DNA of 64,000 nt, from the NCBI GenBank assembly GCA_016182045.1, contig JACOYE010000011.1:39-64038 (forward strand). Direction: 5' to 3'. Below the pieces are notes generated by a model. That model ran no database searches, was not told the origin of the DNA, and worked only from the letters and a program-made list of their open reading frames with translations. Position numbers and translations under genes: made by a program. This DNA comes from Candidatus Microgenomates bacterium. Lineage in GTDB: Bacteria; Patescibacteriota; Microgenomatia; Daviesbacterales; UBA10151. The first letter of the stretch is position 1, and the number at the start of each line of letters is the position of its first letter. Below, one piece after another: positions 3,775 to 28,539 of this stretch.

Positions 3775-4399
3775 CCAAGTTCTCGTTGGGCATATCAGGA
3801 ATTTCCGGTAAGATTGTTAAGGGATTAATGTAGTTGCCATCTTTGGTAATTTCCAAATGGGTATGAGGACCGGAGGTGAATCCAGACAAACCAACCTCTC
3901 CGATGATGTTTTCAGATCTAACTTCTTGACCTTTCTTGATATAAATTCTTCCCATATGTCCATATAAAGACTTGAATCCTTCAGTATGAGAGATAATCAA
4001 ATGATTACCATAGCCCCAAAAGCTGAAATTGACCTGCTCCACAGTTCCGGCGGTAATGGGATGGATGGGCATTCCCAAGCCGGCGGCAATATCGACACCA
4101 GGGTGAGATCTGGAGAAAGATGTTGAGAGGTAACCGGGATGAGGTAAAACAACCGGTTGAGGAAAAGAAGAGGCAATGATGCCATCTTGCACCTGATTTT
4201 GAGCAAAAGAGGTGGAGAGTCTGACAGGTGGAAATGTCAAAGCCGGATAGTAGCCGAAAAAGAAAAGAAGCAAGGTGATAATTATGGTAAGTCGTTGAAA
4301 CCTTTTTGGAACCCTTGACTTGATGTTAAAAAATCTTTGAGTTAGGGCGACCCCTTCAAAAACTTTTCTAGGCAGAAGGTTTTGAATTTTCTCTTTCAA
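3764..4399 (-). CDS. M23 family metallopeptidase (LytM-like)
   Basis: HPGVDIAAGLGMPIHPITAGTV...GYGNHLIISHTEGFKSLYGHM...GLSGFTSGPHTHLEI contains the HxxxD and HxH M23 motifs. Confidence 0.8.
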   Translation of the reverse strand: MKEKIQNLLPRKVFEGVALTQRFFNIKSRVPKRFQRLTIIITLLLFFFGYYPALTFPPVRLSTSFAQNQVQDGIIASSFPQPVVLPHPGYLSTSFSRSHPGVDIAAGLGMPIHPITAGTVEQVNFSFWGYGNHLIISHTEGFKSLYGHMGRIYIKKGQEVRSENIIGEVGLSGFTSGPHTHLEITKDGNYINPLTILPEIPDMPNENLAKK

Positions 4400-4494
4400 A
4401 AGAAAGCCAAGCTTTTTAAGGGCTTGGTAAGGAGGAATACTAACAAATTTTTCTTAAGATGTAAAGCTTACTGTGGTATATTATACTTTAGCTT

Positions 4495-5310
4495 GTGCCA
4501 AAACTTATGAAAAAGACTCTGCTTTTGGTTTTAGTAAGCATCAGCATTGCTTTGCTGATTGTTCGTTTCAGTTCAAAAGGCTTGGAGATTTTTTTGGGCA
4601 TCAAAGAAAAGAGTGGCCTGTCTATTTTATCCCAACCTTCCGATGCCACTGTTTTTCTTGATGGTCAAGAGGTGGGTAAAACTCCATATGAAGATAAGAA
4701 CTTACTTGTTAAAGACTATGTTGTTAAAATCGAAAAAGATCAATCCTTTTGGGAAGGAAAGGTTAGTTTAATAGCAGGAACACTGGTCGTTGTAAATAGG
4801 GAATTATCTAAAGAATTAACCACCTCTGCAGGTGAGATTTTAACTCTAAGAAAAGGTAGAGGTTTAACTGTCATATCAAATCCCAATAGTGCAGATGTAG
4901 AAGTAGACAATAAACCATCTGGTAAGACTCCTTTGTCAGTTAATGTATCAAGCGGTGAGCATAATGTTTCAGTTTCTCACCCGGGTTATCTAAAAAGGAA
5001 TATCAGAGCGATGTTGCCGTCTGAATATAACCTGGTTGTTTCTGTTGATTTGGCTATTGCTGAGGCCGATCTTACCACCATAACTACTCCTCCTATAACT
5101 CAAACTCCCCAAGTTTTGGTAAAGGACACCCCCACGGGATTTTTAAGAGTTAGAGATAAGCCTTCTTTATCAGGAAAAGAAATTGCTCAAGTTAAACCTG
5201 GTGATACCCTGATACTTTTGGAAGAGCTTCCTTCTTGGGACAGAGTTAGATTACCTGATGGGACTGAGGGTTATGTTTCCTCAGTTTATGTAGAGAAAAA
5301 GAATCCCTAA
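4495..5310 (+). CDS. Secreted/membrane-anchored PEGA-domain protein with C-terminal SH3b-like domain
   Basis: N-terminal TM segment. Repeated PEGA-like segments (DGQEVGKTP, VDNKPSGKTP). C-terminal GFLRVRDKPSLSGKEIAQVKPGDTLILLEE..WDRVRLPDGTEGYV is SH3b-like. Confidence 0.55.
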   Translation: MPKLMKKTLLLVLVSISIALLIVRFSSKGLEIFLGIKEKSGLSILSQPSDATVFLDGQEVGKTPYEDKNLLVKDYVVKIEKDQSFWEGKVSLIAGTLVVVNRELSKELTTSAGEILTLRKGRGLTVISNPNSADVEVDNKPSGKTPLSVNVSSGEHNVSVSHPGYLKRNIRAMLPSEYNLVVSVDLAIAEADLTTITTPPITQTPQVLVKDTPTGFLRVRDKPSLSGKEIAQVKPGDTLILLEELPSWDRVRLPDGTEGYVSSVYVEKKNP

Positions 5311-5343
5311 CCTGTGGTTTGCCAGTAAAATAAAAATAGTGCT

Positions 5344-5372
5344 TGACAAATTGCCCATAAAATGTTAAATTT
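5344..5372 (+). promoter_or_regulatory. Candidate promoter for the marR-like gene (TTGACA-17nt-TAAATT)
   Basis: ttgaca at 5344-5349 and taaatt at 5367-5372, read directly. Confidence 0.35.
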
Positions 5373-5385
5373 TTAATTGTTTGCC

Positions 5386-5400
5386 TTCTAATAATTAGAA
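5386..5400. promoter_or_regulatory. 15-bp perfect palindrome ttctaataattagaa between the promoter and the marR start (candidate MarR operator)
   Basis: Perfect dyad symmetry read directly. MarR regulators bind palindromes overlapping their own promoters. Confidence 0.35.
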
Positions 5401-5427
5401 AACTAAAGAAAGGGTGGCAAGACTTTC

Positions 5428-5862
5428 TTGAGGCATACATTAATCTTTCACACTATAAATATCGCCAGAAAACTCCAACAGAGAGTAAGTTTTCGAGATA
5501 CCCACTTACCTTTATCATATTCCCAAGCTTTAACTTTAATCACCCTTCGTTTGAAAAAAAGCTTAAGTCAAAATGAGTTAGCTTTAATACTTTATCTTAG
5601 CCCAGCTTCCGTGGTCACTCTGATTGATGAACTGGAGAAACTCGGCTTAGTCAAAAGAGAGATACCGAGCGATGATCGTAGAAGGTATAGCATTGTATTA
5701 ACCAAAAAAGGGCAAAGGAAAGCTATAGCCATAAGAGATCTAACTTATAAATTGGACGATTTCCTCAAAGATAAACTTCAAGCAAGACATAACCGTTCTT
5801 TTCATTTGAATCTGAATAAAATAGATCATTATTTAGACCAATGGAAAGGAGGTGAAAAGTGA
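5428..5862 (+). CDS. MarR family transcriptional regulator
   Basis: The wHTH LSQNELALILYLSPASVVTLIDELEKLGLVKREIPSDDRRRYSIVLTKKGQ is typical MarR. Confidence 0.75.
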   Translation: MRHTLIFHTINIARKLQQRVSFRDTHLPLSYSQALTLITLRLKKSLSQNELALILYLSPASVVTLIDELEKLGLVKREIPSDDRRRYSIVLTKKGQRKAIAIRDLTYKLDDFLKDKLQARHNRSFHLNLNKIDHYLDQWKGGEK

Positions 5863-6311
5863 AGTATCTTGCTCAAAGTGAAATTTGGCAACTTGATCAG
5901 GTAACAGGTGTGCAAGCGTTAAATGGTCAGCCTCCCTCAAGGGTACTGGCTCGTTTTAAACAGATTTTCCCCTTGACGTTGTTTCGTGACGAGTTGATCA
6001 TCGAAGAATTGAGAATGGTTTGGGTCAGAAGAGACGGACCATGGGCCGAGGAGGTGATTTCTATTATGGCCACCGATATTGCCTGCGTTGATGCCTCATC
6101 CGGACCATTTTTTGGACATGTACATATCAAAAGCCTAACTGGTGGTTTAGATATTTTTGTAGACAAATTACAAAGAGGTCATGTCTATCAGATTAGAGCA
6201 TTGGTTGAAACTATTGCCTTAGCCTCCAGAGCAGGTAAAATAATTAATGGTTCTCTTCAAGCAGGTGGACACTCTCATTTTCCGAGTCAAGGTCATATTG
6301 AGATGAACTAA
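5859..6311 (+). CDS. Hypothetical protein, translationally coupled to marR (4-nt overlap)
   Basis: 150-aa ORF, no family recognised. Its start overlaps the marR stop. Confidence 0.3.
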   Translation: MKYLAQSEIWQLDQVTGVQALNGQPPSRVLARFKQIFPLTLFRDELIIEELRMVWVRRDGPWAEEVISIMATDIACVDASSGPFFGHVHIKSLTGGLDIFVDKLQRGHVYQIRALVETIALASRAGKIINGSLQAGGHSHFPSQGHIEMN

Positions 6312-6385
6312 CCATCTGCTTGTATCAAAAAACTATCCAATCTTCTTAAGAGGAGATAGAATCTTTAATAAACTTTAGCGGCTTT

Positions 6386-7318
6386 TCAAGCCCCCAGATA
6401 ATAAATTATTCCAACTACCACAACAAGCCAGAGAAGAACTGCTATAAGAAGCGGTCTGTCGGTGAGTAAGACTCTTTCAGGAGACTCTCCCTCCTTTTTT
6501 TCATAAATTATATACAGATACCTCATAACTCCATAGATTACTAAAGGAACTGTTGCCATCAGATATTTTGCTTCAGCAAAAGGTAGCTCCAAACCCCCTA
6601 AAAAGTTAGATAGAGCACTTCTGGCGTTGATAGGTGGTTGTAAGAAAGCAAAGAAAGCATAAGTTAACCAGGTAGAGTTGGCAAACATAGAAGTTAAGAT
6701 ATCCAACAAGTTTTCAGAATAATGCAAAAGAGTTTCTCTATGGCGAGCAGCCTGGCTTTCCATCAAAGTTCGCTCAGACCGCCTCTTTCCAATTGCCAAA
6801 AATAAAGCAAAAGATATAACAGAAAGTAAAAACCAAACATTAAGATGAGCATCTATTGCCCAAACTCCCGCGTATACTCTTAAAACAAATCCAGTAGCAA
6901 TCACCATCACATCAATTAAAATGACCTGTTTTAGATAAGCTGAATAAAAAAGTTGCAAAACTAGATAGGTTAATGCAGCAAAGAAAAAGGCAGGGGAGAG
7001 TTTGTAGGATAAGGGGAGAAGCAGACCGATTATAGCCAGTGCCACTGCAGTGGCAACCGATACAGGGACTGATCCTTCGGCAATAGGACGCTTCTTTTTA
7101 AAAGGGTGAAGTTTATCTCTTTCAATATCGAAAACATCGTTTAAAAGATAGGTGGCAGATGAGAAAGCGCAAAAAAACAAAAACGCTTGGAGTGTCTTAA
7201 TTTGACTTATGGGGTCAAATAATGAGCCGGAAAAAATAAGAGCAGCAAATATGCTTAAGTTTTTTATCCACTGTCTGGGACGCGACGCTTTGATAAGTCC
7301 CCAAAGAAGTTTAACCAT
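6386..7318 (-). CDS. UbiA-family prenyltransferase, decaprenyl-phosphate phosphoribosyltransferase-like
   Basis: N-terminal RPRQWIKN, NDVFDIERDKLHP (NDxxDxxxD motif) and multiple TM helices. Confidence 0.7.
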   Translation of the reverse strand: MVKLLWGLIKASRPRQWIKNLSIFAALIFSGSLFDPISQIKTLQAFLFFCAFSSATYLLNDVFDIERDKLHPFKKKRPIAEGSVPVSVATAVALAIIGLLLPLSYKLSPAFFFAALTYLVLQLFYSAYLKQVILIDVMVIATGFVLRVYAGVWAIDAHLNVWFLLSVISFALFLAIGKRRSERTLMESQAARHRETLLHYSENLLDILTSMFANSTWLTYAFFAFLQPPINARSALSNFLGGLELPFAEAKYLMATVPLVIYGVMRYLYIIYEKKEGESPERVLLTDRPLLIAVLLWLVVVVGIIYYLGA

Positions 7319-10516: not shown

Positions 10517-10537
10517 TGATCCGCCTTTGGCGGATCA
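10517..10537 (-). terminator. Hairpin tgatccgcc-tttg-gcggatca overlapping the tatD stop codon. Candidate terminator for tatD (minus strand).
   Basis: Perfect 8-9 bp stem read directly. Downstream RNA on the minus strand is only moderately U-rich. Confidence 0.3.
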
Positions 10538-11413
10538 TCCTGAGTGGAGTCGAAGGATCTGTTTTACATTGGCACTGGTTTGATTGGCAACATCTTCTAA
10601 AGAAATCTCTTTTAGCTGGGCAATCAGTTGAGCAATCTCTAAAACATTGGCTGGTTCATTTCTTTGGCCTCTTTTTGATTGAGGAGGCAAAAATGGGCAG
10701 TCTGTTTCCAAACAGATTTTTTCTAAAGGCAACAATTTAGCAGCTTCCCTTAAATATTCATTTTTAGGATAAGTAATGGTGGCTGCAAAGGATATTAGTA
10801 TACTCGGTTTCTCGAATACTCGTTTCGTCGTTTGTAGCAAGCCACTGTAACAGTGGAGTATAGTTGGGTGGTTACCAACCATCTTCAGTACTTCATCCCA
10901 TGCTTCGCTGTTTTGTGGATTGTGTGATCTATCATCCCTGCAGTGAACAATTAAAGGTAAATTTAGTTTCTTAGCTAAATCAATCTGGGCTTGAAACAAC
11001 TGGCGTTGCAGTTGTTTTATCTTGGAAACAGATAGGGTAGGCGGAGTAAATTCTGGATCAGAATAATAATCTAGTCCACATTCTCCAACAGCTACCACTT
11101 TTTTAGGATTATCACTATAGATTTTTCCCAATAGATCTATATCTTCTTGGACAAACCTTGTACGATCGGATAATGTTTGTCCATTTTTGGCATATTTTAT
11201 GGCCTCATGGGGATGGATACCAATGGTGGAATACCCTTCGACTCCGCTCAGGGCAAGTTTATCCGAAACTTGAGCAGCCTCCCTAGATTTCTCCACATCA
11301 ACACCAACATTTATGATAATGCCAACTCCAGCATCCTTGGCTCTTTGAATAACCTCATCAAGATCCTGCTTATAATCTTTCCAGTAAAGATGAGCATGAG
11401 TATCTACCAGCAT
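10535..11413 (-). CDS. TatD family metal-dependent hydrolase (start moved to internal Met, MLVDTHAHL)
   Basis: MLVDTHAHL..., HCRDD and ILHCYSG TatD motifs. The longer ORF-track start would overlap the divergent gene at 11496. Confidence 0.8.
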   Translation of the reverse strand: MLVDTHAHLYWKDYKQDLDEVIQRAKDAGVGIIINVGVDVEKSREAAQVSDKLALSGVEGYSTIGIHPHEAIKYAKNGQTLSDRTRFVQEDIDLLGKIYSDNPKKVVAVGECGLDYYSDPEFTPPTLSVSKIKQLQRQLFQAQIDLAKKLNLPLIVHCRDDRSHNPQNSEAWDEVLKMVGNHPTILHCYSGLLQTTKRVFEKPSILISFAATITYPKNEYLREAAKLLPLEKICLETDCPFLPPQSKRGQRNEPANVLEIAQLIAQLKEISLEDVANQTSANVKQILRLHSG

Positions 11414-11495
11414 ACCCCTGATTTTATCAGAAATAACAATCCTCTTTAATCTCTTGCTAAAAGATGTTATAAGATAGGGAGATAAATAATCCTTT

Positions 11496-12830
11496 ATGAG
11501 CATAACTACAGTTGAAAAAATTGAGAGGTTTCCTGCTGATCGACCAGTAGCTATTGTTTTGGGTAGCTCCAGAGGTATCGGGGGTGCTGCAGCAGAAGCT
11601 TTAGGAAAAGCAGGAATTAGTGTTCTTGGTACTCATGCTCATGAGCAGTTTAATAAAAGGCAATCTCAAGTAGAAACAAGAGTTCATCAAAGTGGAGGGT
11701 ATATGCATTCAATTGTGGCTGATATGACCAAAGGAGTAGGTCATCAGGCCCTACTTGAAACTTCTCGCATAGTGGCTCCTGATGGGTTTGATTACATAGT
11801 TATCAACTTTGCAGTGGGATTAGAAGAGAATGCCGATGATGCGTACGCGGAAAAAGGTAATATTGCTGCTCCGATAAGAATACTGGAGATGTTCTTGCCC
11901 ATGATGCATCGAGGAGGCAAAGCGCTATACGTAACCAGCCTTTGGGCAGATAGGTATGGAGAGTTGGAACAGCCACCAGGATATGAGAAAAGAGTTGCTC
12001 GACCTAAAAAAATTACTCAGCAATTACTGATTAATAGAATTCCCTATCTTTCTTCATTAGGGATAAATCTTGGTTTTGTGCGAGGACATGTCATCAAAGA
12101 TACTGGTTTTTACACCATAGCTCAGCGTAAATATCCTGATTTATTAGAGAAATTAAAGTTGACGGCTGAAGATGGAGATTTTGCAACTGCTGCAGATATG
12201 GGCACTGCCATAAGAGATATGATAATAGGTGGATTTGAGACAGGCGATATGATGAGTGTAGGAGGCACAGAAGCATATCCTTATACAGGAGTTCAGCCCG
12301 CACCGTTCGTACTAAATAGAATGCAAATTTCTGAAAACTGGTTGCCGATGTATGGGGATGATAAGTTGCTAATTGATCTATTTGTCTCCCACAAAGATAA
12401 AAACACAGGGCAGGCTCGTTTTGATGTAATGCAAAGAAATGTAGAAGGTCATTTTAAAGAAGGCTATGCGGGCGGAATTCAGGTATTTCGAGGGGTGGAG
12501 ATTCTAGAAGCTGAGGTTCAAACGGTAGGGGCTATTGTGCGGGCACGCGATCCTAATATGATTATAGTCCCAGCTGGCGAAGGAAAAATCCCACTTTTCC
12601 GTAAGGCACAAGTTGCGTGGGATGGAATGGTATTCCCAGGTGATCAAATTATTATGGATGGGGAGATTATATCTGTAGAAAAGAATTATGTTACAGCTGT
12701 ATGCAAGGCCTGGATTAGGGGTGTAGGGATTATTTCTCAGAGTGAGGTAGGGTTTAACCTTGCATCGCCAAAGGTTGCTCAAAGACTAATTAAGGAACAA
12801 AAGGCTTTAAGAGATAAATACTGGGATTAG
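11496..12830 (+). CDS. Fusion protein: N-terminal Rossmann/SDR-like domain plus C-terminal FabZ/FabA-like hotdog dehydratase domain
   Basis: The N-terminus VAIVLGSSRGIGGAAAEALGKAG is glycine-rich TGxxxGxG. The C-terminus NVEGHFKEGYAGGIQVFRGVEILEAEVQ...FPGDQIIMDGEII matches the hotdog HF..PG..ILEA.AQ core. GC looks somewhat higher than neighbouring genes by eye. Confidence 0.5.
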   Translation: MSITTVEKIERFPADRPVAIVLGSSRGIGGAAAEALGKAGISVLGTHAHEQFNKRQSQVETRVHQSGGYMHSIVADMTKGVGHQALLETSRIVAPDGFDYIVINFAVGLEENADDAYAEKGNIAAPIRILEMFLPMMHRGGKALYVTSLWADRYGELEQPPGYEKRVARPKKITQQLLINRIPYLSSLGINLGFVRGHVIKDTGFYTIAQRKYPDLLEKLKLTAEDGDFATAADMGTAIRDMIIGGFETGDMMSVGGTEAYPYTGVQPAPFVLNRMQISENWLPMYGDDKLLIDLFVSHKDKNTGQARFDVMQRNVEGHFKEGYAGGIQVFRGVEILEAEVQTVGAIVRARDPNMIIVPAGEGKIPLFRKAQVAWDGMVFPGDQIIMDGEIISVEKNYVTAVCKAWIRGVGIISQSEVGFNLASPKVAQRLIKEQKALRDKYWD

Positions 12831-12851: not shown

Positions 12852-13475
12852 TTAACTGTTTCTTAAATTTATTCCTAATGTTGTAATGAATCTATAATCT
12901 TCTTTTAAGTTTTCAACAACAGATCTTCTATGAGAGAAATAATCCTTACTTTCATAAGTACAAATTTTTGGATTGTCTATATTTTTCTTTAAGACACTAA
13001 GCTTTTGCAGTTGATCTTCTGCTAATTGCCAAAGATTTAGTCTGTAATGACACGGCCCAATAGATGGACCGAATTTTACAATTAAATCTTTAGGATTTGT
13101 ATTAAAATTTTTCTTCATACTTTTAACTACATTTTTTATTATGTCCTTTTCTAATCCTCTCCATCCTACATGAATTAAACCAATAGCATTATGCTTTGGG
13201 TCATAAAGACCGATGGGAATGCAATCGGCAATTTTCACCATTAAATATATTCCTGTTTCATTGGTAATTAGTCCATCTGCTTTAGTATCTGAACTTGGTA
13301 GGCGGTTGGTAACACTGATTATCTTATTACTATGTATTTGTTTGACTTCAGCAACAGAGTTTGGATTAATCCCCAGTCTTTTTAGAAATTTTTTTCTATT
13401 TTCTAAGACTGTCTTTTTATCTTCTCTGAAAAAAGACATGTTTCCATCTGAAACTTTTGAAGATACAAAAATCAT
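12852..13475 (-). CDS. PgeF/YfiH family (laccase-domain, DUF152) protein
   Basis: N-terminal DGNMSF, ADCIPIGLYDP and LIHVGWRGL motifs. Confidence 0.8.
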   Translation of the reverse strand: MIFVSSKVSDGNMSFFREDKKTVLENRKKFLKRLGINPNSVAEVKQIHSNKIISVTNRLPSSDTKADGLITNETGIYLMVKIADCIPIGLYDPKHNAIGLIHVGWRGLEKDIIKNVVKSMKKNFNTNPKDLIVKFGPSIGPCHYRLNLWQLAEDQLQKLSVLKKNIDNPKICTYESKDYFSHRRSVVENLKEDYRFITTLGINLRNS

Positions 13476-26917: not shown

Positions 26918-27556
26918 TTGGCAGTTAATCCCATGCCTAAAGTTTTTGACCTTGGGGAATTTGGAAGAGAAGCAGAAAGATTATTGCACCTATCCCTGAG
27001 AGATCCTAAACACCCGGAGTATGCCTCAATAGCTTGCATTAACGATAAAGGTCGGCTCGTCATCTTAAAGGAACCCATCCGAGGTGATGAGAGGAGCGTT
27101 CCGGTTCCCGCCCCCAAGGATAAACGCAGGGTCCTTTTGCTACATACCCACGGTGACACTGATACTCCTTTCTCCGCAAGTGATTTAGAGGGCTTATTTG
27201 TGCCCTCAGCCGAGAATGGGGTTCCAGCCGTGCTTCTCGCCACTCCGAGTCTGAAAATGCTGATTCTTCGCACCAAAGATACTCCCTATCTCACGCCGCT
27301 TCAAATTGAAGATAGGACTGTGATGATGTGGCTCCACCCAGCTACGGAAGAGGAGAGAAAACTATTCGAAGCTGGTTATCAGGCAGCGGGCGGTGAAGAA
27401 GCCGATAGGCCACCAGAGCTTACTCCAGAGTATAAGCAAGCCCTTCGTCAGCTCAGCAGCAAGCGAATGTTCGTGCTCACCCGCGCTGCCCATGAGTATA
27501 ATCTCAAAGGCTACTCTTGCCCATCTAACCAGAATATTGTGTCACTTCTCAGCTAA
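26918..27556 (+). CDS. JAB/MPN (JAMM) metalloprotease-domain protein on a GC-rich foreign segment, probably 5-prime truncated
   Basis: LLLHTHGDTDTPFSASDL is a perfect HxHx7SxxD JAMM/RadC-like motif, with an upstream Glu in ILKEPIRGDE. The frame is open from 26696 (74 codons upstream of the TTG start) with no start codon. GC is roughly 50% by eye against AT-rich flanks. Confidence 0.5.
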   Translation: MAVNPMPKVFDLGEFGREAERLLHLSLRDPKHPEYASIACINDKGRLVILKEPIRGDERSVPVPAPKDKRRVLLLHTHGDTDTPFSASDLEGLFVPSAENGVPAVLLATPSLKMLILRTKDTPYLTPLQIEDRTVMMWLHPATEEERKLFEAGYQAAGGEEADRPPELTPEYKQALRQLSSKRMFVLTRAAHEYNLKGYSCPSNQNIVSLLS

Positions 27557-27679: not shown

Positions 27680-27943
27680 ATGTATAACTGGTCTGTTGAT
27701 GAAAAAAGGTTTAAAAAGGAAAACCCTAAAGAGTATAGACTGTGGAGGTTGGTGCAGCTGATAAACTATGGACTGGATGGAGAAAAACTGGATAGGGAGG
27801 AGGTCAAAAAAGCCTGGCCGAAGATTAAAGATCAGCTTGATCCATATAAGGCTAGGGCAATAGAATATTTATTATGGGGAAAGCTATACTCACTCCCGAA
27901 CAACTTAACTTTCTGGAATTTATCCAAAAAGAACAACAAATAA
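27680..27943 (+). CDS. Small hypothetical protein upstream of and overlapping the NTase gene (candidate partner/antitoxin)
   Basis: 87-aa ORF. It overlaps the next ORF by 70 nt in another frame. No family recognised. Confidence 0.3.
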   Translation: MYNWSVDEKRFKKENPKEYRLWRLVQLINYGLDGEKLDREEVKKAWPKIKDQLDPYKARAIEYLLWGKLYSLPNNLTFWNLSKKNNK

Positions 27944-28539
27944 CCAAACGCTTTTATTGGACCGGCGGAACAGTTCTTTCTGAATTCTACCTGCAACACA
28001 GACTTTCGGAAGATATAGATTTATTCAATGAATTTGAGGAGGTAAATCAGAGTTTAATAGATGCTTTCTTAAAAAAGATTTCACCTTCACTTCAAGTAAC
28101 AGAGATTAAGAAAAGTCAGTTTTTAGGTTTAGTGAGTTATATCTTGGTTTTTAAAAATAGTCAGAAACTAAAAATAGATTTTAATTATTATCCATTTCCT
28201 AGAATTGAAAAAGGCAAGAAATATAAAAATTTAGAGATAGACAGTATTTATGATATTGCTGTAAATAAAGTGCATACTATGTTTATGCGGACAAAAGCCA
28301 GGGATTTTGTTGACATTTATTTCATCATGAAAACAATTGATTATCATTTAGATCAGCTCATCAGGGACGCGAAGGTTAAGTTTGACTGGCATATTGATAA
28401 AGTTACTTTGGCCAGTCAATTTATGAAAGTCAAAGAAATTAAAGATTTACCTAAAATGTTGTTACCATTTAATCAAAAAGATATGGAAAAATTTTATCTA
28501 AAGCTGGCTAAATCTTTAGAAGAAGAGATCTTAAAATAA
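27874..28539 (+). CDS. Pol-beta-superfamily nucleotidyltransferase, AbiEii/DUF1814-like (abortive-infection / type IV TA toxin family)
   Basis: YWTGGTVLSEFYLQHRLSEDIDLF matches the GG...S.DhD NTase motif and AbiEii N-terminal architecture. 221 aa. Confidence 0.55.
   Translation: MGKAILTPEQLNFLEFIQKEQQITKRFYWTGGTVLSEFYLQHRLSEDIDLFNEFEEVNQSLIDAFLKKISPSLQVTEIKKSQFLGLVSYILVFKNSQKLKIDFNYYPFPRIEKGKKYKNLEIDSIYDIAVNKVHTMFMRTKARDFVDIYFIMKTIDYHLDQLIRDAKVKFDWHIDKVTLASQFMKVKEIKDLPKMLLPFNQKDMEKFYLKLAKSLEEEILK

Follow-up and report, generated by a model that had tools for sequence, protein, structure and literature searches.

A FabL-like reductase joined to a FabZ-like dehydratase in a Candidatus Microgenomates bacterium: a putative two-step enzyme of acyl chain elongation

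Among the closest described relatives of the protein discussed here are two enzymes from the type II pathway of fatty acid synthesis (FAS II). FabL, the enoyl-ACP reductase III (ACP, acyl carrier protein) known as YgaA in B. subtilis (3OIC and 3OID), is a stand-alone protein of about 250 amino acids with the fold of the short-chain dehydrogenases/reductases (SDR), and FabZ (e.g. 1Z6B) is a dehydratase made of a single hotdog domain. The gene at positions 11496 to 12830 of a 64,000 nucleotide stretch of contig JACOYE010000011.1 of a Candidatus Microgenomates bacterium (the whole stretch is referred to as the window) carries both types of domain in one intact open reading frame (ORF) of 444 amino acids. 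This confirms what a preliminary description, made from the nucleotide sequence alone, had reported, and the three sequence strings quoted there are located at residues 23, 317 and 380. Judged from its sequence, the protein is moderately likely to combine an enoyl reductase similar to FabL with a dehydratase similar to FabZ, a fusion which would carry out the last two steps of type II elongation, probably on acyl-ACP.

The published signature of FabL is Asn-Xn-Ser-Xn-Tyr-X6-Lys, the enzyme being NADPH-dependent with an active site described as a hybrid of FabI and FabG (2022 review, PMC9260719). Enoyl-ACP reductases (ENR) with a Y-x7-K spacing, namely FabI2 and the plant and apicomplexan ENR, have been validated experimentally (PMC6817880). 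Eukaryotic multifunctional enzyme 2 (MFE-2; HSD17B4/Fox2) and the bacterial SDR-MaoC fusions, which act on 3-hydroxyacyl and enoyl thioesters (PMC516016), have the same order as the protein in the window, SDR followed by hotdog in one chain. MFE-2 carries, however, a hotdog of the MaoC/hydratase-2 type and a dehydrogenase with the classical YxxxK, while here the hotdog is of the FabZ type and the SDR has the spacing of an ENR. In type I FAS and polyketide synthases (PKS) the enoyl reductase (ER) is of the medium-chain dehydrogenase/reductase type (in fungal FAS it is a TIM-barrel flavoprotein), and the dehydratase (DH), a double hotdog, precedes the ER on its N-terminal side. The DH-ER(-KR) arrangement of these systems (KR, ketoreductase) resembles the fusion in that DH and ER are covalently linked for consecutive steps, but in the present protein the ER-like domain, an SDR, stands first in the chain. 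No description of an ENR-dehydratase fusion in a type II system was found in the literature searched, including the ENR review, nor any of a FAS cluster in the candidate phyla radiation (CPR), and the protein is a new architectural variant assembled from known enzyme families. Its features are the following.

11496..12830, + strand: complete fusion gene, 444 amino acids plus stop codon, ATG start (from the ORF list)
11538..12281, + strand: SDR (Rossmann) domain, residues approximately 15-262, FabL-like putative enoyl reductase
11559..11582, + strand: glycine-rich dinucleotide-binding motif LGSSRGIG, residues 22-29, with G23, R26, G27, I28 and G29 invariant or nearly so in the family alignment
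11982..12008, + strand: active-site segment Y163-EKRVARP-K171 (Y-x7-K), Y163 and K171 invariant, aligned to Y-TTVGVS-K of FabL
12306..12764, + strand: FabZ-type hotdog dehydratase domain, residues approximately 271-423 (profile comparison with PDB and topology of the AlphaFold2 model)
12444..12521, + strand: catalytic block of the dehydratase, EGHF...GVEILEAEVQ, residues 317-342, including His319 and Glu338
12768..12824, + strand: family-specific basic C-terminal helix, residues 425-443, KVAQRLIKEQKALRDKYWD (AlphaFold2 model; pattern A.R...RQ...R in the family alignment)

The reductase half

The N-terminal half has the Rossmann fold and the N-terminal dinucleotide-binding motif (TGxxxGxG type) of the classical SDRs. 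As noted in the preliminary description, the canonical Tyr-x3-Lys is absent: none is present in residues 1-270, and the sole YxxxK of the whole protein, YGDDK at residue 286, lies in the hotdog half. The lack of this motif does not imply a lack of catalytic residues, because an invariant Asn-Ser-Tyr-x6/7-Lys set is present. N122, S148, Y163 and K171 are conserved in all 22 sequences of the family alignment (A1), which has eleven invariant residues, the others being G23, G29, D76 and T203 in this half and H319, E338 and Q342 in the hotdog. The position of the classical Tyr, four residues before the Lys (K-4), is occupied by Val, and the Tyr is found at K-7 in the family (Y-x-P-V-A-R-T-K, six intervening residues) and at K-8 in the protein of the window (Y-E-K-R-V-A-R-P-K, seven). 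The residues of this set correspond to the published FabL signature, whose X6 spacing is found in nearly all relatives and is x7 in our protein. A Y-x6-K is also present at the aligned columns in 104 of the 118 nearest matches outside the family, most of which are named 'enoyl-ACP reductase III'. The x7 spacing with a Pro before the Lys is shared with one other protein, P0156 (YSQRVAGPK versus YEKRVARPK; 254 amino acids, from a truncated contig), and is thus a lineage trait which defines a sub-lineage. Arg26 is at a position typical of NADP(H)-preferring SDRs, and a preference for NADPH is probable from the general pattern of SDR, FabG and FabL proteins (PMC9260719).

The solved structure with the highest similarity to a profile of the N-terminal half is FabL of B. 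subtilis (3OIC; E 6e-31, 110.9 bits), ahead of the first FabG (96.4 bits), and the segment between Tyr and Lys aligns to it without gaps. In common with FabL the domain has the SDR fold, a TGxxRGIG-type glycine motif and, in nearly all relatives, the Asn-Ser-Tyr-x6-Lys set without the internal Met of FabI; it differs in its low identity (about 20-25%), in the Y-x7-K with Pro before the Lys, and in being fused to a dehydratase instead of standing alone. The single sequence gives a Pfam match to adh_short barely over threshold. Among the NCBIfam models the best overall is NF005868 (PRK07806, 'SDR family oxidoreductase'), an uncharacterised subfamily whose stand-alone relatives of about 250-270 amino acids share the YEPVA.SK motif. 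It matches our protein with E 1.2e-30, the alignment spanning positions 8-244 of the 248 in the profile; the full protein scores 106.9 bits and its N-terminal half 109.1 bits, both below the curated cutoff of 162 bits. The N-terminal halves of 20 out of 20 family members match the model, with a best E of 1e-59. The best model with a defined function is that of FabL, NF005975, matched by 19 of the 20 members (best E 1.6e-26), while FabG models give 1e-18 to 1e-21. NF005975 is not among the nine families found at E <= 1e-5 for the protein of the window itself, and no member reaches its curated cutoff, as judged by the cutoffs of comparable SDR equivalogs (>230 bits). By the curated cutoffs the protein is outside FabL, FabZ and PRK07806; it resembles all three and by its sequence forms a family of its own.

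As the FabL active site is itself described as a FabI/FabG hybrid (PMC9260719), the motifs by themselves do not reveal the chemistry. The SDR half could instead be a KR or dehydrogenase acting on the 3-oxo/3-hydroxy group, with the hotdog interconverting 3-hydroxyacyl and enoyl forms, similar to MFE-2 or to FabG and FabZ, in the synthetic or the degradative direction. KRs do dominate the fold matches of the SDR, FabG models match with the E values given above, and KR and DH are likewise consecutive steps. This alternative is unlikely in our view, since K-4 is a Val and the Tyr at K-7 or K-8 has the spacing of an ENR, and two further points against it are given below, from the type of hotdog and from the neighbouring genes.

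The dehydratase half and the proposed reaction

The C-terminal half has what defines a FabZ: the hotdog fold, a catalytic His in an HF motif and a Glu on the central helix. When a profile of this half (A2) was compared to PDB, the top 21 matches were all FabZ, aligned over the full length with a best E of 6e-20. The match to FabA (E 1e-3) was far behind, and matches to the MaoC-like 1q6w (E 0.033), to the MFE-2 hydratases 1pn2 and 1pn4 (E 0.3 over about 30 residues) and to thioesterases of the 4HBT/Acot/PaaI type (E 0.04-0.5) were non-significant. H319, E338 and Q342, invariant in the family, align with the His of the FabZ GHF motif and the Glu of (I/V)EA(L/M)AQ. The earlier assignment to the FabZ/FabA superfamily of dehydratases with a catalytic His is thereby supported. 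The domain is not a thioesterase, which the preliminary description had named as the alternative, given the non-significant matches and a His/Glu pair as in dehydratases. Scores of the single sequence lie far below the curated cutoffs: matched alone, the protein gives about 3e-5 with FabZ models (TIGR01750 with 23.8 bits, cutoff 155; NF000582 with 23.9 bits, cutoff 113), and the C-terminal half alone has no Pfam match and weak PDB matches, which are consistently to FabZ.

Modelling with AlphaFold2 gave a pLDDT of 32 from the single sequence and of 90.6 from the family alignment. In the latter model the Rossmann domain (residues 18-255) is followed by a short linker, the hotdog (271-423), in which four long strands wrap around the central helix (333-351), and an additional helix at the C-terminus (425-443), which is past the end of the FabZ alignments and has no counterpart in stand-alone FabZ. 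As in FabZ there is a single hotdog with the GHF His, the E-x-x-AQ Glu on the central helix and a PGD motif, and the homologue of the N-terminal FabZ motif LP-x-Y...L-x-D is recognisable (LPMYGDDKL.ID versus LPHRYPFLLVD). In distinction to FabZ, the HFP...PG prolines are largely replaced, the basic helix is added, and an SDR precedes the domain in the same chain; a tandem double hotdog is present in some relatives.

From the observed domain homologies, the conservation of catalytic residues and the gene neighbourhoods of the relatives, the following course of reaction can be proposed. The FabZ-like hotdog would probably dimerise in the manner of FabZ, each active site combining His319 and Glu338 from different chains. 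Its substrate would be a (3R)-hydroxyacyl thioester, most likely acyl-ACP, dehydrated to the trans-2-enoyl form. Reduction of the double bond by the FabL-like SDR would follow, via Tyr163 and Lys171, with NAD(P)H and probably NADPH as the cofactor. The net result would be a DH-ER fusion, with two consecutive FAS II steps on one polypeptide. The preliminary description had compared the protein to known reductase-dehydratase fusions, that of MFE-2 among them. The FabL-like Asn-Ser-Tyr-x6/7-Lys signature and a hotdog of FabZ rather than MaoC type make DH plus ER the better analogy than the KR or dehydrogenase plus hydratase of MFE-2, and the hotdog type likewise weighs against a KR function of the SDR half.

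Distribution and gene neighbourhoods of the family

An exhaustive HMMER scan over 1.84 billion representative sequences (E <= 1e-3) gave 238 matches only. About 24 of these are single-hotdog fusions of 407-500 amino acids (plus two shorter fragments), aligned in both halves with 23-42% identity, and about 15 are longer relatives of 520-590 amino acids, presumably mostly with a double hotdog (e.g. P0016, P0020, P0023 and P0027). In P0020 a second hotdog repeat after the SDR domain was identified with hhalign, a double hotdog which resembles the pseudo-dimeric DH of megasynthases; the other relatives of 520-590 amino acids may likewise carry a tandem hotdog. A word-indexed homologue search returned the protein of the window alone and, when started from the family alignment, one further fusion (P0057). 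A pattern scan of 185,579 species-representative genomes, of limited sensitivity so that its counts are lower bounds, found at least four full-length fusions, in Candidatus Curtissbacteria, Candidatus Doudnabacteria, a 'Patescibacteria group bacterium' and one metagenome-assembled genome labelled as Gammaproteobacteria, together with two SDR-only relatives in Chloroflexia. A scan of metagenomes added 13 loci, and ten relatives which were looked up represent clusters of one to three metagenomic sequences. The family is thus recurrent in CPR lineages yet rare. The earlier view of an unexpected architecture stands as to its rarity but not as to its being a one-off, and orthologues in the lineage, which according to the same description would speak against anything unusual, do recur in several CPR lineages without being common.

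A natural unfused version was considered for locus L015 and rejected. At 4367-5677 of this contig a 39%-identical homologue is interrupted by a single in-frame TAA inside a continuous homologous inter-domain linker (…EPLDPNEQ*PKILNREQVAKRLPMYGD…), hence it does not represent two genes; the stop may have arisen by nonsense mutation or by an error of sequencing, or be a site of readthrough.

The closest full-length relatives, P0002 (E 1.7e-78) and P0003 (E 5.1e-70), are encoded at loci L004 and L005, where the fusion abuts a KR-type SDR of about 250 amino acids and is close to one or two ketosynthase (KS) genes and a Crp-family regulator. Other relatives have related surroundings.

L008: SDR, fusion, KS, Crp
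L018: Crp, two KS genes, KR, fusion
L014: KS directly upstream of the fusion
L027: FabD, Crp, KS, fusion, KR
L030 (double-hotdog P0020, fusion at 4968-6650): PlsC-like, KS, AcpS, KR, fusion, FabD, GpsA
L007: FabD, FabH, truncated KS, 33-aa KR remnant, fusion, CDP-alcohol phosphatidyltransferase

A KS gene is found beside the fusion in L004, L005, L008, L014, L018, L027 and L030. In five of the six clusters checked (L005, L018, L008, L027 and L030) the adjacent stand-alone SDR has a classical YxxxK, the five motifs being YASSK, YSAAK, YSMAK, YAAAK and YAASK. The stand-alone KR of L004 (4469-5221) reads YAMAN; the catalytic Lys is thus missing, and the enzyme may be inactive. In the fusion clusters of the KS/KR/FabD type, neither a separate FabZ nor a separate ENR gene was seen. 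KS and KR are provided by other genes of these clusters and the DH by the fusion, which leaves the fused SDR as the only ER candidate seen. The presence of a separate KR with classical YxxxK, and of KS, FabD, AcpS and Crp next to the fusion, therefore makes an enoyl reductase the likeliest function of the fused reductase, while a fused KR would be a redundant second one in the five clusters in which a classical-motif KR gene abuts the fusion. The AcpS gene of L030 indicates that an ACP exists in that genome. A tblastn search with an approximate E. coli AcpP query, a weak test for so short a protein, detected an ACP gene neither in the window nor in any of the loci.

The same DH and ER chemistry could also serve a specialised, Crp-regulated pathway of the type II PKS or secondary-lipid kind, composed of a KS pair, a KR and the DH-SDR, the orphan of the window then modifying scavenged acyl chains. 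Two divergent KS paralogues, with about 27-30% mutual identity, recur together with Crp in L004 and L018, one KS plus Crp is found in L005, L008 and L027, P0057 has an ApeI-like Pfam match, and the family is rare and patchy. We regard such a pathway as distinctly unlikely, because in L030 and L007 the fusion is tied to genes of primary metabolism (FabD, FabH, AcpS, GpsA, PlsC-like and CDP-alcohol phosphatidyltransferase) and the hotdog profile fits housekeeping FabZ far better than any PKS or APE dehydratase in PDB.

A Crp/FNR-family regulator is a constant partner of the KS-KR-fusion module in L004, L005, L008, L018 and L027; the L004 regulator is 60-66% identical to each of those of L005, L008 and L018, and the L027 copy was identified by Pfam. 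This association is a hint that the module may be controlled by cyclic nucleotides or by redox state. A conserved additional component was looked for and discarded, since the unannotated ORFs of the clusters are not homologous to one another, and KAS III-like or HX4D-like motifs noted by eye in ORFs of L008 (391 amino acids) and L030 (320 amino acids) were unsupported by Pfam and PDB searches. In L007 (2958-3660) a 140-aa KS fragment and a 33-aa remnant of the C-terminus of the cluster KR (57% identity) lie beside an intact fusion, which suggests a fatty acid cluster caught mid-decay. Fusions without FAS neighbours are those of the window, L003, L009 (Doudnabacteria), L010 (Patescibacteria), L020 (a 721-kb contig), L028/L029 and L015. 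The stand-alone PRK07806-type SDR of Chloroflexia at L013 showed no FAS context.

The copy in the window and the meaning of the fusion

In the window the fusion gene is monocistronic, with minus-strand genes on both sides: a divergent TatD upstream and a convergent YfiH/PgeF downstream (Pfam), the order of genes on the opposite strand downstream being YfiH/PgeF (Cu-oxidase_4), MetRS and SbcCD. The longest ORF of TatD (10535-11503, - strand) runs 8 nt into the start of the fusion gene on the opposite strand, but on independent contigs TatD is called from a later start (292 amino acids), leaving a divergent spacer of about 82 nt, in which no convincing sigma-70-like promoter candidate was seen. 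The YfiH/PgeF-like gene directly downstream (12852-13475, - strand; GC 0.298, GC3 0.212) has the lowest GC of the 48 long ORFs of the window. Pfam analysis of about 40 ORFs revealed housekeeping content only, including GroEL, TIM, MurJ, LepA, HrcA/DnaJ, glycine-cleavage P subunits, NusA, PNPase, Lon, pilus proteins, UbiA, glycosyltransferases, UvrD and an AbiEii toxin. By tblastn no KS, second SDR, FabD, FabH or ACP was found in the 64 kb, the ACP search having the limits stated above. The copy is thus an orphan among housekeeping genes, and its partners (KS, KR and ACP) must be either outside the 64 kb or absent from the genome.

This isolation, with no KS, KR, ACP or other acyl-lipid genes in the window, raises the question whether the gene is a non-functional relic of a FAS cluster lost from a reduced CPR genome. 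Clusters do decay elsewhere, as in L007 with its truncated KS and KR remnant and in L015 with its in-frame stop, and the protein has non-consensus residues near the cofactor and active sites. A relic is nevertheless very unlikely. The ORF of 444 codons is intact, all eleven family-invariant residues are kept, and 28 of 35 and 13 of 14 family-conserved columns are retained in the two domains, which is within the family range and shows that the copy is not decayed. The Y-x7-K with Pro is shared with P0156 and hence a lineage trait, and codon usage is native. An identical protein, with the same neighbours, is present on two independent short-read assemblies (contigs L001 and L002).

The preliminary description had taken a somewhat elevated GC as a hint of lateral acquisition. 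The GC of the gene is indeed raised (0.421 versus a mean of 0.385 over 48 long ORFs; z = +0.88, rank 8), but GC3 is near the mean (0.310 versus 0.319; z = -0.18), the excess being located in codon positions 1 and 2, as expected of a protein rich in Gly and Ala. Composition gives no indication of a recent lateral transfer. The real GC outlier of the window is a DUF4329 ORF (26933-27556; GC 0.50 and GC3 0.48, by far the highest). An AbiEii type IV toxin gene comes after it (27874-28539; GC 0.30), and the segment 26933-28539 may be a small foreign or mobile insertion.

To our knowledge CPR/Patescibacteria are generally regarded as unable to make fatty acids. With the fusion read as a DH-ER enzyme, some CPR might have kept a minimal FAS of type II, centred on a hitherto undescribed ENR class (PRK07806/FabL-like, Y-x6/7-K, FabZ-fused), and orphan copies as in the window might saturate 3-hydroxyacyl or enoyl chains scavenged from a host for the membrane of the symbiont; this wider proposal we consider doubtful, though worth stating.

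At the level of annotation, the record of the identical protein ('SDR family NAD(P)-dependent oxidoreductase [Candidatus Microgenomates bacterium]') covers the SDR half only, and Pfam does not detect the hotdog half in this sequence. Should the N-terminal domain prove to be an enoyl reductase, a further SDR-type ENR lineage would stand beside FabI, FabL, FabL2, FabI2, FabV and FabMG; going by the literature searched, it would also be the first case of an ENR with a covalent link to FabZ among type II systems. Since ENRs are targets of antibiotics and determine resistance to triclosan, unrecognised ENR classes matter for resistome surveys. If the reading is true, the compact KS-KR-(ER-DH)-FabD-AcpS clusters would show that some ultra-small bacteria elongate acyl chains, and the orphan copies raise the question of a remodelling of scavenged lipids.
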